This document shows, piece by piece, positions 30,573 to 35,255 of a stretch of DNA of 40,824 nt. Below the pieces are notes generated by a model, which had not been told where the DNA came from, did not search any database, and worked only from the letters and a program-made list of their open reading frames with translations. The position numbers and the translations under genes are program-made. How positions within the stretch are numbered: position 1 is the stretch's first letter; every line of letters starts with the position of its first letter. Source of the stretch: a virus (lineage: Duplodnaviria > Heunggongvirae > Uroviricota > Caudoviricetes); the IMG/VR virus record IMGVR_UViG_2563366969_000004, positions 1-40,824 of that record. One strand, given 5' to 3'.

Positions 30573-31294
30573 TTAACCTCCTGCGGCGGTTCCGGTAGAG
30601 GCATCCAGTACAAGGCGTTCCCTAACCACGATAAAGTGCCGTCGCTCAACTCCACGTATTCCCCTTGTACCTGTCCTGCCATATACTCGCCGTGCTTTGA
30701 ATAAATTAAAATCCAATCATCTTGAGCGGGCATTCGCTCACTACAGCTTATCCAACCATCCGGAGTTACCGGATAGTTGCCAGCCTGAACAGTAGGCATA
30801 TCAGGACCTTTGCGAATCGCCCTGGCAAGATCGATTGGGTCGTCGTACAACCAGTCACCTGTTTGCGGATGATTGGCTTCTGCCAATTGTGCAGCCCACT
30901 CCAGGCCGTCTTTGTGTCCTTGCAGATAGTCCAGCGGTAACTCATCACTATTACTTACAGGTTCGGCTTCCAGTTCTGCAATGCGCTTCTCTGCAGCTTC
31001 CAGCTCAACACGCAGCTTCTCAAGCGTTAGAGCCATCTCCATGTTCTCTTCCAGCAGTTCAATCACATCAGGATCGCTATCATCAACTACTGTTATGCGC
31101 GATTTTTTGTAATGCTCGTCAGCATAAGTTCGTCCAGTTTTGAAGCATCCGTCGTCCTCCATGCCGGAACAGGCATAAACAACATGTGATCCAGATATGC
31201 GCTGCATTGACATTTCCTCGCCACAAACAGAGCATTTAGGCGCTGGTTTCGGTGAAAAACGTTCACGTAACGTCTGATAGTAAAGCTCGCTCAC
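30569..31294 (-). CDS. Ea22-like protein with N-terminal zinc ribbon and C-terminal DUF551-like domain
   Basis: GTG start at 31292..31294 (complement) preceded by perfect SD AAGGAGG and overlapping upstream stop (GTGA); CSVCG...C..C ribbon; coiled coil; C-terminal ...YWMPLPEPP typical of DUF551. Confidence 0.55.
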   Translation of the reverse strand: MSELYYQTLRERFSPKPAPKCSVCGEEMSMQRISGSHVVYACSGMEDDGCFKTGRTYADEHYKKSRITVVDDSDPDVIELLEENMEMALTLEKLRVELEAAEKRIAELEAEPVSNSDELPLDYLQGHKDGLEWAAQLAEANHPQTGDWLYDDPIDLARAIRKGPDMPTVQAGNYPVTPDGWISCSERMPAQDDWILIYSKHGEYMAGQVQGEYVELSDGTLSWLGNALYWMPLPEPPQEVN

Positions 31295-31839
31295 TGGCTG
31301 CCTCCTTTGCGAATCTGTTCCGCCCATTCTTCAAGGGATTTCTCCGCATATTCACCGGACAGGCCATCAATCGGGTGCGGTTCATTAGCCAACTCTTCTT
31401 TCGCTGACAGAATCATGCGTGTAACGTCGAAAACTTCACGTAAAGACTTATTGATAAATCCGTGGTTGAAAGCAGCAGCAAGACGGCTTGCGGTATAGTT
31501 AATCCCCTCGTTGCGAGCCTCCGCACGAATTTCAGCCAGAAAAGCATCGGTGGCTGGAGTTTCGCTGTGGTGCAGGGCATCGTTGATAATCATTGCAGCA
31601 ACTCCGGCCTGCCCTGCATCCGTGACCGACACATGCTCAAGAGTTACAGCCATTGCATGTTTCAGCCCCGCATTCTCCACAGCCAGCGCATTAGCACGCA
31701 CCAGTTGCACTTCCAGTTGCGTTGCCAAATCGCTGATCAGCTTTGCCACACTGCGCATATCAACGGCACCACATTCTGCTTTCAGTTCCGAAGCCATCTC
31801 ATGCCCGGCGGCAACTAACCCTTTGATATTACTTTCCAT
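31291..31839 (-). CDS. Hypothetical protein (nin-like region)
   Basis: 182 aa, acidic helical protein. Confidence 0.45.
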   Translation of the reverse strand: MESNIKGLVAAGHEMASELKAECGAVDMRSVAKLISDLATQLEVQLVRANALAVENAGLKHAMAVTLEHVSVTDAGQAGVAAMIINDALHHSETPATDAFLAEIRAEARNEGINYTASRLAAAFNHGFINKSLREVFDVTRMILSAKEELANEPHPIDGLSGEYAEKSLEEWAEQIRKGGSQ

Positions 31840-31900
31840 CTTTACCCTCGCTTATCCACATAACTTATTGATTACATTGATAACTAAAAAGATCGTCGAT

Positions 31901-32248
31901 TCAGAACTCTTCGATGTTCCAGCCACCACCTGCTTTCTTTGGTTTAACCGTTACCCCGATGATTCGGAACGGATACTGATCTGCGGCGACTTTGGTTTTC
32001 ACCCTGGCGTCGTCGGTCCAGAATCCCCCTTTCACTTCGTGCAGCTCCATCTCGCCGGTGGCGAGCATCACAGCAAAATCGGGCGTATAGAACGTGTTGT
32101 CAGCTAACCGCAGCTTGATACCCTCAAATCGATACCAGACGATTTCTCCTGCACGTTTACGCATCTCAAGGTGCTGGCAATACGCAGATTCTGTTTTGTT
32201 CATCTGGCCTGTTTTGAGTCGACCAAGAGCCTGTATCTGTTTTCTCAT
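31901..32248 (-). CDS. DUF1064-like phage protein
   Basis: 115 aa; pattern ...YTPDF...E.HEVKG...K.K resembles DUF1064 family; assignment from memory. Confidence 0.45.
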   Translation of the reverse strand: MRKQIQALGRLKTGQMNKTESAYCQHLEMRKRAGEIVWYRFEGIKLRLADNTFYTPDFAVMLATGEMELHEVKGGFWTDDARVKTKVAADQYPFRIIGVTVKPKKAGGGWNIEEF

Positions 32249-32266: not shown

Positions 32267-32313
32267 TTAAAAACCACATAAGACACGAAATCAATAGAGT
32301 TTAGAATATTTTG

Positions 32314-32328
32314 TTACCCAACAGGTAA
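32314..32328. promoter_or_regulatory. TTACC-N5-GGTAA palindrome, copy E
   Basis: TTACCcaacaGGTAA between P-like gene stop and DUF1064 gene. Confidence 0.5.
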
Positions 32329-32365
32329 CTATCAAGACATAAAAAAATGCGCTATCGCGCTGGTA

Positions 32366-33142
32366 TTACTTGATAAATCCTGCCGCCTTTCCCCGCCTGT
32401 ATTCCTCCATCAGCCACTGCGCCGGTGTTATTCCCCCCAGGGTGGCGGCGTTAGGCATGCACCCGAAACTTCGCCCTAGCGGGTGGTAAACGTCTCTCCC
32501 TGTGTCCGGAGGCGTACTCATGGGTTCTGGCTTTGCCTGTATGCTGATCACCGGATCGGGTATCTGCTGTCCGGAAGCCACCTTTTTCGCCCAATCATCG
32601 AGCAGCCTGCGCGCGTGTTTCTCAACCTCAATCTCGCTAAGCTGGCGCTGATACATTGCACGGCGGGTATCACATACGACCCAGTACATAACCGGATGCC
32701 GCCACGGGAATCTTTCGGGACCACCAGGATATAAACTTTTTTCCTTGCTGTACCGGTGAAACTCCGCCATCACATCGTCAATGGTGACGCCAAGAACCAT
32801 CTTGCTGTCTTTACACCACTTGATGAATTGCCCTGGCGACGGCCAGAACGGAGACTCACTGGCGCGGGCGTGGCGCATACCAGCGTTAACCTGTTCCATT
32901 GTAGTGATCCCATTCTCCAGAAACGCAAGCATCCATTGCTTACGGAATTCATTAAGTTTGTTCTGCTCCCTTATGGTCGAAACGCTTGCAGGAAATGCAG
33001 CCTGTAACTGGACAAATAGTTCATTGAAAATTCTAGCGACCTGCTCCTTTTTGCCATTGCTGTCACGCCGCTCTTCATGCACAGCAACACCATACTCACG
33101 TAAGCGATCGTACTCATTGAGAAGTTCTGGAGTTGATTTCAT
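32366..33142 (-). CDS. Replication protein P-like (helicase loader)
   Basis: Segments FLENGITTMEQVNAGMRHAR and FWPSPGQFIKWC closely resemble the conserved core of lambda P family as I recall it. Confidence 0.75.
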   Translation of the reverse strand: MKSTPELLNEYDRLREYGVAVHEERRDSNGKKEQVARIFNELFVQLQAAFPASVSTIREQNKLNEFRKQWMLAFLENGITTMEQVNAGMRHARASESPFWPSPGQFIKWCKDSKMVLGVTIDDVMAEFHRYSKEKSLYPGGPERFPWRHPVMYWVVCDTRRAMYQRQLSEIEVEKHARRLLDDWAKKVASGQQIPDPVISIQAKPEPMSTPPDTGRDVYHPLGRSFGCMPNAATLGGITPAQWLMEEYRRGKAAGFIK

Positions 33143-33944
33143 CCCACACCCCTTCTATCCAGTCAGTGTTATTCCAGTCAAGCTCATCGCTTTTCCCGAC
33201 GTTTTTTGATTTTCCCCTGATATGATTTACGTGCCTGGCGAATTTTTGTTCCCACTGAACCTGCGTGAACACTTTGCCCTCAGCCATCCAGTAATCCCGG
33301 AATGCAGCAAGTTCAGCAGGTGTAAATTCCGGTTCCGGCAGGGCCGTTCCCCACAGCGCAGCACGCCGTCGAAAATCCGGCGACGGATGCCAGCCATCGG
33401 TCATCGGAAATTTCCCAATAGGTTCACTCAGGCCATCCAGAAATGCAGGTTCTGCCACCTGCAACGGCGTACCGTTCGCTTCACTGGTCGGAGCACCCTC
33501 GCGCACGTGCGCTATGTGTGGGGTTTTATATATATCTTCCTCTTCCTCTTCCTCTGGTAACTCCTTTTGTAACGCTGTTGGCGTTACTTTTTGCGTTACT
33601 CGTTTTCGATGCTCTGCCACTCTTCTATTCGTAAGTGCACGTTTTTTCGATGATTCTCCATTATGTCGCTCAAAGTTTGGAAGAATTAGTTTGCCGTCAT
33701 GATAAGCAAGCCATCCGACGCTAATGAGGGCGTCAGCAAATCCTGTAATAAAAGCGAGTCTATCAAGTACTCCTTTTGTAACGCTGCCAGCGTTACCGTC
33801 TATTGTTTGCTGGTCAGCCCATGCCCATATACGAACCAGCTTTCCAAGAACAGCATCTGGATCAATACCCAGAATTTCTGCTATCTGAAAAATTTCAGGT
33901 TTATCAGGAGTGATAACTTCAACCTTAATCCAGCTGCTTGCCAT
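33114..33944 (-). CDS. Replication initiator / replisome organizer (lambda O-like role) with DnaT-like C-terminal region
   Basis: ATG 33942..33944 (complement) with SD GAGGGG; acidic EEEEEE linker; iteron-like DNA repeats inside the gene; immediately upstream of P-like gene. Confidence 0.6.
   Translation of the reverse strand: MASSWIKVEVITPDKPEIFQIAEILGIDPDAVLGKLVRIWAWADQQTIDGNAGSVTKGVLDRLAFITGFADALISVGWLAYHDGKLILPNFERHNGESSKKRALTNRRVAEHRKRVTQKVTPTALQKELPEEEEEEDIYKTPHIAHVREGAPTSEANGTPLQVAEPAFLDGLSEPIGKFPMTDGWHPSPDFRRRAALWGTALPEPEFTPAELAAFRDYWMAEGKVFTQVQWEQKFARHVNHIRGKSKNVGKSDELDWNNTDWIEGVWDEINSRTSQ
33560..33599. repeat. Iteron-like repeat 1 inside initiator gene (putative origin)
   Basis: ACTCCTTTTGTAACGCTG-ttg-GCGTTAC plus extra GCGTTAC half site; palindromic arms GTAACGC/GCGTTAC. 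Confidence 0.5.
33769..33796. repeat. Iteron-like repeat 2 inside initiator gene (putative origin)
   Basis: ACTCCTTTTGTAACGCTG-cca-GCGTTAC; same 18-nt core as repeat 1 but read in a different codon frame. Confidence 0.5.
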
Positions 33945-34137
33945 AGGTTTCCCCTCTTGCACTCTTTAGTGCACAAGCAAATTCATTACGATGGCGGTTG
34001 GCGCTATTCATTGCACATTCAACACATGTTCCGTTCAGAACATACCTTTCAGAGAGATGGCCGTGACGGCACCGCTTTCCTGTGAAATAGCGATTTAACC
34101 CGGCTTTTGCGGCCTCCATTCTGGTTACTATCTTCAA
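33925..34137 (-). CDS. Small Cys/His-rich hypothetical protein
   Basis: 70 aa from TTG start with SD AGGGG (ATG alternative at 34117..34119); CRHGH...CVEC motif. Confidence 0.4.
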   Translation of the reverse strand: MKIVTRMEAAKAGLNRYFTGKRCRHGHLSERYVLNGTCVECAMNSANRHRNEFACALKSARGETYGKQLD

Positions 34138-34215
34138 TTTTTCCGCCCCTTTTTGTTATTGATATTGGCTATTTTGCACAATTGGAAAATTTGATCAACC
34201 AGATTTGGTTTTTTA

Positions 34216-34230
34216 TTACCTTTGAGGTAC
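34216..34230. promoter_or_regulatory. Imperfect TTACC-N5-GGTAC palindrome
   Basis: ATTACCtttgaGGTAC just downstream of the terminator that follows the Cro-like gene. Confidence 0.35.
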
Positions 34231-34240
34231 GAATAGATAT

Positions 34241-34263
34241 GAAAAGACCGCCGGGTGGCGGTC
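34241..34263 (-). terminator. Rho-independent terminator after Cro-like gene (tR1-like position)
   Basis: On minus strand GACCGCC-accc-GGCGGTC followed by TTTTC. Confidence 0.55.
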
Positions 34264-34285
34264 TACAGAGGGTTGTAGCTGGATA

Positions 34286-34516
34286 TCATGAGTAGAAGAA
34301 GTATGCCAGTTCTGCTTTTGAGCGCAGCCATTGTCTTGTTTTACAGGCTTTAAAAAGCCCATTCATCAATACCTTACCTGGCATTTTGCGCTTGCCTGTT
34401 AAGTGAGTCTGGATATAGTGACTCGTCGTTCCGGCTTCCTGTGCGAAGGCTTCACGCTCATCCGGAGTAAGTGCAAGCCAGTGCTTTTTGAAATCGAAAT
34501 GTCCGTTATCGCTCAT
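34286..34516 (-). CDS. Cro-like HTH regulator
   Basis: 76 aa; HTH-like segment EAFAQEAGTTSHYIQTHLTGKRKMP; divergent from CI-like gene across operator-rich 154-bp region. Confidence 0.6.
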   Translation of the reverse strand: MSDNGHFDFKKHWLALTPDEREAFAQEAGTTSHYIQTHLTGKRKMPGKVLMNGLFKACKTRQWLRSKAELAYFFYS

Positions 34517-34583
34517 AGCTATTGCCTGATATTTATTTCAGATAATAAATATTCACCCATAAGGTAACAAAAATCAAGGATGG

Positions 34584-34598
34584 TTACCTATGAGGTGC
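34584..34598. promoter_or_regulatory. Imperfect TTACC-N5-GGTGC palindrome (OR-like region)
   Basis: TTACCtatgaGGTGC, 2 bp from next copy. Confidence 0.35.
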
Positions 34599-34600
34599 AT

Positions 34601-34615
34601 TTACCTGTTGGGTAA
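34601..34615. promoter_or_regulatory. TTACC-N5-GGTAA palindrome (OR-like region)
   Basis: TTACCtgttgGGTAA between divergent Cro-like and CI-like genes. Confidence 0.55.
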
Positions 34616-34670
34616 TATTGCTTTAAATTGAATCATCTACTGATTCATATATGAGGCGATTTTCCAGAAA

Positions 34671-35255
34671 ATGAAAAGTATCCAGGACGTCCGCAGGCAA
34701 AATCTCAACGACTTGATCGACCGTGAATTCAATGGTGTTCAGACGCGGATGGCAGAAAAACTTGGAACTCAGGCAAATCTGGTAAACCGCTGGGCTCTTG
34801 GCAAGAAGGTTATCGGCGACCAGGTTGCGCGAAAAATTGAAGCTGCCGCCAATAAACCCCGTAACTGGCTTGATATCGATCGCTCGCTTTCTCAGGAAGG
34901 TTTTCAGCCTGTCGGCCCAAGCGACATTGGTCAGCTGGCGGCTCACAACCTGGAACGCTGGATGAGCGAAAGCCGCGACCTTTCAACACAGGGAAAACTT
35001 CACCGCGCATCCGGCGTCGCCCAGGTGACAATCAGCCGCCTGTTAAACAATGAGGTCAGCGTTTCCATTTCCACCCTGGAGAATGTTGCATCCGCATTCG
35101 GGCGTCACGGATATGAACTACTGATTCACCCGCACGACCCTGCGACTATCAACTATGACCGCTCACGCTACGCATTGTTACCCGAAACCGAGAAAGCAAA
35201 GATCGAAAGTTACATTGAATTTGTCATCAACCAGAACGAAAAAAGCAAACAATAA
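34671..35255 (+). CDS. CI-like prophage repressor with two HTH (XRE-type) segments, no S24 peptidase domain
   Basis: 194 aa; HTH-like QTRMAEKLGTQANLVNRWALGKK and SGVAQVTISRLLNNEVSVSISTLENVA; no Ser-Lys autocleavage module recognisable; no SD within 10 nt of ATG; strong terminator follows. Confidence 0.6.
   Translation: MKSIQDVRRQNLNDLIDREFNGVQTRMAEKLGTQANLVNRWALGKKVIGDQVARKIEAAANKPRNWLDIDRSLSQEGFQPVGPSDIGQLAAHNLERWMSESRDLSTQGKLHRASGVAQVTISRLLNNEVSVSISTLENVASAFGRHGYELLIHPHDPATINYDRSRYALLPETEKAKIESYIEFVINQNEKSKQ

Follow-up and report, generated by a model that had tools for sequence, protein, structure and literature searches.

Palindromic half-site clusters within a phage initiator gene as a probable lambda-type replication origin

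The record of phage lambda shows four dyad-symmetric iterons inside the initiator gene O, then an A/T-rich stretch with an 18-nucleotide (nt) purine run, and then a palindrome. The Rac prophage of Escherichia coli (E. coli) is reported to have an active origin, oriJ (PMC3945230), and the record of phage epsilon15 has no origin annotated, though repressor and IHF sites are. We examined the replication initiator gene of a tailed-phage sequence of 40,824 nt, IMGVR_UViG_2563366969_000004 (hereafter the window), whose closest isolates are epsilon15-like podoviruses and prophages (vB_EcoP_ZX5 and TL-2011b at 98.6%; BUCT554, filed under Uetakevirus). The gene contains palindromes that, judging from sequence comparison, are very probably binding sites of the phage's own initiator. 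These palindromes probably form a lambda-type replication origin within the initiator gene, recognized by a winged-helix-like N-terminal domain for which there is no family model. We found no description of the origin of this initiator family in the literature searched, and such an absence is not proof that none exists.

A repeat finder run on the initiator region returned one 28-nt repeat family, with copies at 33560-33587 (ACTCCTTTTGTAACGCTGTTGGCGTTAC) and 33769-33796 (ACTCCTTTTGTAACGCTGCCAGCGTTAC). The two agree at 25 of the 28 positions, and their starts are separated by 209 nt. Within each lies a 19-bp palindrome, GTAACGC-N5-GCGTTAC; the two palindromes are named site A and site B (Table 1). 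An extra half-site and a degenerate one flank site B and together with it make up cluster B (33557-33599); the degenerate half-site, AGTTACC in the window, is an intact CGTTACC in relatives. With up to two mismatches allowed, the palindrome pattern matches exactly twice in the window, versus 0.09 matches expected, and none of 100 shuffles reached two matches. The window holds 14 GTAACGC heptamers, five of them inside the 230-bp repeat stretch. Since 209 mod 3 is 2, the two palindromes are read in different codon phases, and translation of the open reading frame (ORF) gives ...DGNAGSVTKG... at one copy and ...RVTQKVTPTALQKELPEEEEEEDIYKT... (also given as KVTPTALQKELPEEEEEEDIYKT) at the other. 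An earlier note on this DNA, made from its letters alone, had reported the two copies with their internal palindromes, the difference in frame, and a run encoding EEEEEE with an A/T stretch adjoining the repeats, all of which we confirmed with the repeat finder, the translation, and the sequence itself. Its wording, iteron-like direct repeats, was right in that these are repeats, but they are better termed palindromes and half-site arrays than plain direct-repeat iterons.

Table 1. Features of the window and of half-site clusters in distant relatives of its initiator (aa, amino acids)
Feature	Position	Strand	Remarks
Replication initiator gene, 276 aa	33114..33944	-	PHROGs
Initiator domains			aa 1-120 predicted winged-helix-like plus basic helix; acidic linker; aa 175-247 DnaT-like; lambda-O-like C-terminal tail
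Site A, 19-bp palindrome GTAACGCTGGCAGCGTTAC (coding strand)	33778..33796	.	gene nt 149-167; encodes G-N-A-G-S-V-T
Site B, 19-bp palindrome GTAACGCCAACAGCGTTAC (coding strand)	33569..33587	.	gene nt 358-376; encodes V-T-P-T-A-L-Q
Extra half-site GTAACGC	33593..33599	-	gene nt 346-352; 12 nt upstream of site B, direct orientation
Degenerate half-site GTTACC (coding strand AGTTACC)	33557..33562	-	abuts polypurine tract
Polypurine tract AGAGGAAGAGGAAGAGGAAGA, 21 nt, encodes EEEEEE	33535..33555	-	coding strand; proposed helix-opening element
A/T run TTTTATATATAT, 12 nt	33524..33535	.	adjoins polypurine tract
GC-rich 12-bp palindrome GCGCACGTGCGC	33501..33512	.	beyond A/T run; terminator-like scan hit 33502-33520
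Lambda-P-like helicase loader	32366..33142	-	overlaps initiator gene end; PF06992 E 2e-55; 39% identical to lambda P
70-aa Cys-rich ORF	33925-34137	-	phrog_1081, function unknown; overlaps initiator start
Strong terminator-like hairpin, 8 pairs then TTTCATATCT	34245-34264	-	between cro-like gene and 70-aa ORF
pR-like promoter match (consensus match only)	34542..34570	-	transcription would run through cro-like gene, 70-aa ORF, initiator and origin
Half-site GTCCGC in epsilon15, BUCT711, RPZH6, phiPSA1, Carin1	gene nt +55 to +106 (absent in Carin1) and +334 to +390
Half-site GTAGAC in Ralstonia phage Raharianne	gene nt +142 to +178 and +358 to +384
Half-site GTCAC(G) in a Vibrio phage and a Rhodanobacteraceae genome contig			same layout

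The same sites recur across the relatives of the gene. We retrieved 160 loci encoding the N-terminal domain, 145 of them distinct, with peptide patterns that excluded the site; they come from viral contigs and from genomes of Enterobacterales, Pseudomonas, Burkholderiales, Xanthomonadales, Planctomycetota, Verrucomicrobiota, and others. Among the distinct loci, the density of GTAACG/CGTTAC is 14.1 per kb in gene nt 100-450 and 0.49 per kb elsewhere, a 29-fold difference. The sites are confined to two places, with a single palindrome around nt 149-175 and 2-6 clustered half-sites at nt ~336-430, and site B is present at the equivalent place in most homologues. Neighboring half-sites in inverted orientation are typically separated by 13 nt, which gives the 7-5-7 palindrome, and those in direct orientation by 11-12 nt; among all spacings in the family, 12 nt direct ranks second in frequency (36 cases). 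In a four-way alignment of the window, Enterobacter phage BUCT554, a Klebsiella phage, and the Rac-like prophage of E. coli 442/2, the palindrome arms are invariant and the center is variable. The distance from site A to cluster B is within ~3 bp of a whole number of 10.5-bp helical turns in 36 of 42 cases, to which we give little weight because this distance is largely set by protein length.

The conservation acts on the DNA rather than on the encoded peptide. Among 88 homologues with less than 90% nt identity to each other, the codons under site A are nearly fixed: GGT in 84 of 88, AAC in 82 of 83, GCT in 71 of 84, AGC in 69 of 70, and GTT in 81 of 84. Their entropy is 0.1-0.8 bit, versus 1.7-2.0 bits at other Gly, Val, and Ala columns, where GGT or GTT is a minority codon and GTT makes up about one third of the Val codons. 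Other fourfold sites are saturated and the synonymous positions under site A are almost frozen. In the same homologues, 15 palindromes of cluster B are in codon phase 0 and 37 in phase 1, with single half-sites in further phases; most of the family encodes N-A-x-S-V-T at both sites, and the lineage of the window encodes V-T-P-T-A-L-Q with the same DNA at site B. The claim that conservation is at the DNA level, first made for the two copies in the window, thus stands and extends to the homologues. It follows that the origin site would dictate part of the protein that binds it, G-N-A-x-S-V-T being the translation of the palindrome from enterobacteria to Planctomycetota.

A second conserved element lies directly beside cluster B. 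The polypurine tract of the window falls in the longest invariant stretch of the four-way alignment, and in nearly all relatives a purine-only run of the coding strand follows right after the last half-site (consensus CGTTACC). The run has a median length of 20 nt and a maximum of 39 nt, and reaches 15 nt or more in 57 of 88 loci versus 1.3% of control windows. It takes the form (GAGGAA)n in enterobacteria and often a pentanucleotide form, (GAGAA)n, elsewhere, and the encoded peptide is EEEEEE, EKRREEK, REEKRRE, or another, depending on the lineage. Arginine codons within the run are AGA in 83 of 84 cases, versus 15 of the 328 Arg codons at codon positions 1-100 of these genes, a comparison that is partly circular because only AGA and AGG fit inside a purine run. 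Across the family, the purine run is followed by a short A/T-rich stretch and then by a C/G-rich, often inverted-repeat sequence. In many relatives (L002, L082, L084, L163, and others) the latter is a C-run/G-run inverted repeat such as CCCCCCTAACCCCCCAAGGGGG at gene nt ~430-470, directly 3' of the A/T stretch; the window carries the GC-rich palindrome at this place.

More distant members of the N-terminal family, at 33-46% identity, keep the two-cluster layout and carry other half-sites (Table 1); the GTCCGC group also includes SPN1S. In the epsilon15 initiator gene (L167:1201-1878), GTCCGC/GCGGAC half-sites lie at gene nt 55-106 and 334-375 and are followed by CCAGAGAAGAGAAGAGAAGAGAAGA (L167:1255-1575). 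The residues that differ most consistently between half-site types are those of a basic helix that follows the invariant R-H-N-G motif (window protein, residues 97-110). With GTAACG (n = 78) this helix reads RALTxxRV, with GTCCGC RAQDADRK, with GTAGAC RAQKSDRQ, and with GTCAC(G) either RALSSDRQ or RASDAERK. We regard its residues as candidate determinants of specificity; since only four or five lineages are compared, this is a lead and not a result. Exchanges of the N-terminal domain point the same way. YdaU of the K-12 Rac prophage is 83% identical to the 442/2 protein in its C-terminal half, and has a DUF1376 N-terminus and quite different in-gene repeats. Likewise, Actinobacillus phage vB_Apl-pPE4 shares the C-terminal DNA of the window at 85% identity and has a different N-terminus and different repeats; its initiator gene (L003:1256-2380, minus strand) contains four repeats of the AAGGCAA..TTGCCTT type at L003:1847-2339. 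In these comparisons the repeat sequence follows the type of the initiator N-terminus, and a swap of the N-terminal domain goes with a swap of the repeats.

The initiator itself matches phrog_2509 (replication initiation protein) over its whole length (E-value 4e-129), and Pfam and the PDB recognize only its DnaT-like domain (aa 175-247; PF17948, E 1e-18; PDB 6aep and 4ou6, E ~1e-20). No Pfam or NCBIfam model matches the first ~120 residues. This part models as a winged-helix-like DNA-binding domain: the best structural matches of its predicted model (predicted local distance difference test score, pLDDT, 80.5) are winged-helix DNA-binding domains. At the other end, the last residues, LDWNNTDWIEGV (~13 residues), are similar to the C-terminus of lambda O, and BLASTP similarity to lambda O is confined to the last ~55 residues. 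Three known families were tried and rejected. The lambda O family (PF04492, Phage_rep_O) gave no hit for the window initiator and an E-value of 6e-36 for lambda O itself. DUF1376 (PF07120) gave no hit, with an hhalign probability of 0.1% against K-12 YdaU, which itself scores E 3e-26. Full-length DnaT (NCBIfam NF002770) scored 93.3 bits against a cut-off of 201, with only profile positions 82-161 matched. Since only the DnaT domain is shared and the score is far under the cut-off, the label 'primosomal protein I' found in phages is a domain-level transfer.

The N-terminal family is large and lacks a Pfam or NCBIfam model. A profile search from one alignment gave at least 3392 protein clusters at E ≤ 1e-5, those listed being close relatives, and a second search was seeded with distant members. 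The family includes the 'YdaU family' protein of E. coli 442/2, an epsilon15 gene product, and ORF40 of Xanthomonas CP2, and occurs in phages of Escherichia, Salmonella, Klebsiella, Pseudomonas, Xanthomonas, Ralstonia, and Vibrio and in prophages of Planctomycetota. Its conserved motifs, W40, W42, D44, G50, W78, R93-H94-N95, and K100-x-R102, are invariant alignment columns and are present in the window protein. RefSeq names the 442/2 relative 'phage replication initiator YdaU family protein', so the role of the protein as an initiator is already accepted.

An initiator gene next to a gene for helicase delivery is a classic pairing. Downstream of 48 diverse family members, the neighboring gene encodes a lambda-P-like protein in 21, a DnaC/IstB-like ATPase in nine, and a DnaB-type helicase in eight. 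Upstream of the initiator gene in the window are a 70-aa ORF, a terminator-like hairpin, a cro-like gene, a pR-like promoter match, and a divergent repressor-like gene (Table 1); the arrangement of the hairpin and the 70-aa ORF is reminiscent of lambda tR1 and cII. DnaA boxes are no denser than chance, three in the window versus 3.8 expected, with none at the repeat site. One perfect consensus DnaA box, TTATCCACA, lies at 31852-31860 (+), ~1.7 kb from the proposed origin, in the gap between an ORF at 31291..31839 (-) and a DUF1064 gene at 31901..32248 (-). Only two matches to the family come from plasmid records. One of them is a 41-kb phage-like circle, the Pusillimonas sp. T7-7 'plasmid' NC_015459, with an initiator at L175:2390-3163 (55% identity) beside a gene annotated only as ATP-binding protein, and with cII, NinB, Ref, and Rha. 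NC_015459 may represent a phage-plasmid or a replicating phage genome that was captured; it is suggestive of autonomous maintenance and is not proof of it.

Several features of a lambda-type in-gene origin are found together here: dyad-symmetric repeats inside the initiator ORF at positions conserved across the 145 loci, selection on these repeats at the DNA level independent of the encoded protein, a repeat type specific to the type of N-terminal domain, and a helicase-delivery gene directly downstream, which in the window is lambda-P-like. The sequences show the architecture of the sites, the purifying selection on their DNA, their co-variation with the N-terminal domain, and the partner genes; binding, looping, the point of unwinding, and recruitment of the loader are inferred. 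In the proposed mechanism, dimers of the N-terminal domain, with its winged-helix-like fold and conserved basic helix, would recognize the half-site (G)GTAACGC, which both site A and cluster B offer in the form of 7-5-7 palindromes, further half-sites being spaced at 11-12 bp. Protein bound to the two clusters, ~20 helical turns apart, would assemble into a nucleoprotein complex that destabilizes the neighboring polypurine/polypyrimidine tract together with the short A/T run (33524-33555), the latter possibly being the unwinding element. The C-terminal part of the initiator, with its DnaT-like domain and lambda-O-like tail, would then bring in the lambda-P-like loader with host DnaB, and transcription of the rightward-operon type from the pR-like promoter would cross the site, as at lambda ori. 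It is conceivable, though we hold it doubtful, that the GA-only tract of the coding strand rather than the A/T run is the universal element, and that transcription of the initiator gene opens or primes the origin after initiator has bound beside it. Because the origin lies inside a transcribed gene, the transcript across the tract is purine-rich, and its pairing with the pyrimidine template could yield an RNA:DNA hybrid of unusual stability; alternatively, the tract could form a triplex.

Several observations weigh against this interpretation. The literature searched reports no experimental binding or initiation for any member of the N-terminal family. The window has only two full palindromes and about two half-sites, fewer than the four iterons of lambda. 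The stretch that the earlier note called AT-rich does exist, but the region is no more than moderately rich in A/T: its A/T run is only 12 nt long and the 40-nt segment around it, at 40% GC, is not the lowest in the initiator gene, so the place of helix opening is uncertain. Finally, in 15 of 87 relatives a further full palindrome precedes the initiator start by no more than 130 nt, for example at -32/-19 in L004, -42/-29 in L071, and -98/-85 in L062, and hence some sites of the family may act in autoregulation.

The last of these points leads to the best surviving of four alternative explanations, each of which we consider weak. The sites might be operators only, at which the initiator or another regulator of the phage or host throttles the replication operon by autoregulation or as a roadblock, with the true origin elsewhere. 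An upstream palindrome is what an autoregulatory operator would be expected to look like, and 7-5-7 palindromes are typical of dimeric repressors. However, pattern and half-site scans found no palindrome copy upstream of the initiator start in the window, and the sites lie deep within the ORF at two conserved positions, tied to a conserved polypurine and A/T element that has no obvious role in repression. Their sequence tracks the N-terminal type of the initiator and not the neighboring regulators, and the repeat finder revealed no second repeat-rich candidate origin in the replication module. We therefore judge a purely regulatory function to be unlikely; autoregulation may exist in addition to the origin role in the relatives with an upstream palindrome.

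The conserved block could instead be a recombination junction, a stretch of homology at the boundary between the N- and C-terminal modules that promotes shuffling of replication modules among phages. In the four-way alignment, similarity collapses right after an invariant CCAGAGGAAGAGGAAGAGGAAGA stretch, and the two halves of the protein have clearly been exchanged among phages. Such a junction would leave unexplained why site A lies midway through the N-terminal domain, why its codons are frozen even where a lineage is saturated at other synonymous positions, and why the layout is constant with a subfamily-dependent repeat sequence, which makes this explanation very improbable. The polypurine tract may serve both as part of the origin and in recombination; the lambda record, too, annotates recombination points beside ori.

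A role as hairpins in the initiator mRNA (or as cruciforms), acting in processing, stability, or translational control, is suggested by the ability of each palindrome to form a 7-9-pair stem and by the TTTTT that follows site B on the antisense strand, which was flagged as terminator-like. Among 44 distinct site A sequences, however, none of the seven pairs changed on both sides and 12 cells break the pairing without compensation, chiefly through GCGTTAC to GCGTTAG changes in Pseudomonas, while the central 5 nt vary freely. Because the arms never change by compensation, what is conserved is the sequence and not the ability to pair, which fits sequence-specific recognition by a protein. Many half-sites are direct, 11-12 nt apart, and lack a partner; the T-run is absent at site A and in most relatives; and an Rfam scan of 32300-34800 gave no match at E ≤ 1. 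Selection for RNA structure is thus extremely improbable. Lastly, that the repeats are a by-product of a duplicated or conserved NAxSVT peptide, which most of the family does encode at both sites in the same frame, or of chance, has practically negligible probability given the same DNA in another frame in the window lineage and in 15 of 52 cluster-B palindromes, the Ser and Val codons fixed far past amino-acid conservation, and the expected number of palindromes stated above.

The proposed assignment locates the probable origin of a group of epsilon15-like (Uetakevirus) E. coli prophages and, by extension, offers a rule for finding origins in a large initiator family without a model: the gene holds two clusters of subfamily-specific half-sites, and a polypurine tract adjoins the second. 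The label 'primosomal protein I / DnaT', commonly given to these initiator genes, is thereby corrected. With four specificities in one layout, the family is a natural system for the co-evolution of initiator and site, and it illustrates clearly how a site in DNA constrains the coding sequence of the very protein that binds there. Lambda-type origins within initiator genes are a kind already known; the initiator family is widespread, and our view of how phage replication works is unchanged.

Among known systems, the winged-helix Rep initiators of iteron plasmids, such as RepA of pSK41 (PDB 4pta), have no sequence-family match to the window initiator, and they use tandem direct iterons beside the gene whereas the window has palindromes inside it. 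With E. coli DnaT, the initiator shares the homologous C-terminal three-helix domain that binds single-stranded DNA and nothing else. The Rac-like 'YdaU' of E. coli 442/2 has an N-terminal domain 70% identical to that of the window and the same GTAACGC palindromes. K-12 YdaU differs in that its DUF1376 N-terminus has no detectable similarity to the window domain and its partner is a DnaC-like ATPase instead of a P-like protein. The K-12 MG1655 gene (L166:2120-2977) contains five AAGCAGATGTTCAA-like repeats (L166:2261-2563), a motif unrelated to that of the window gene in the same bipartite arrangement, one at ~+142 and four at +353 to +431. Since the K-12 Rac initiator is of the DUF1376 type, oriJ is not the GTAACGC motif, and the AAGCAGATGTTCAA-like repeats are a candidate for its location at the sequence level. 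Epsilon15 belongs to the same genus as the closest isolates and has the same N-terminal family (35% identity), the two-cluster layout, and the polypurine tract; it differs in the half-site, GTCCGC versus GTAACG, and in the first cluster, which is at gene nt 55-106 versus 149-167 in the window.

The closest parallel in organization is lambda ori. The proposed origin, like that of lambda, sits within the initiator ORF where the N- and C-terminal domains meet, is built of dyad-symmetric putative binding-site units of 18-19 bp, and shows the same order of elements, with the sites followed by a purine-asymmetric tract and a palindrome. The gene order (repressor, cro-like gene, terminator, initiator, loader), the downstream P homologue (39% identity), and the similarity of the extreme C-terminus to that of O complete the resemblance. 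In contrast, the N-terminal domain of the window initiator is unrelated in sequence to lambda O, and its C-terminal half has a DnaT-like domain; the sites form two clusters 209 bp apart, whereas the four lambda iterons are adjacent; and the candidate for unwinding is a polypurine tract rich in GA with just 12 nt that are purely A/T, in place of the ~40 bp of A/T-rich DNA in lambda. The earlier note had described an origin in the initiator gene 'as in lambda O'. The comparative data support its placement of the origin and not a kinship of the N-terminal domain with O, and the likeness is best understood as an analogy of mechanism rather than membership in the lambda O family.

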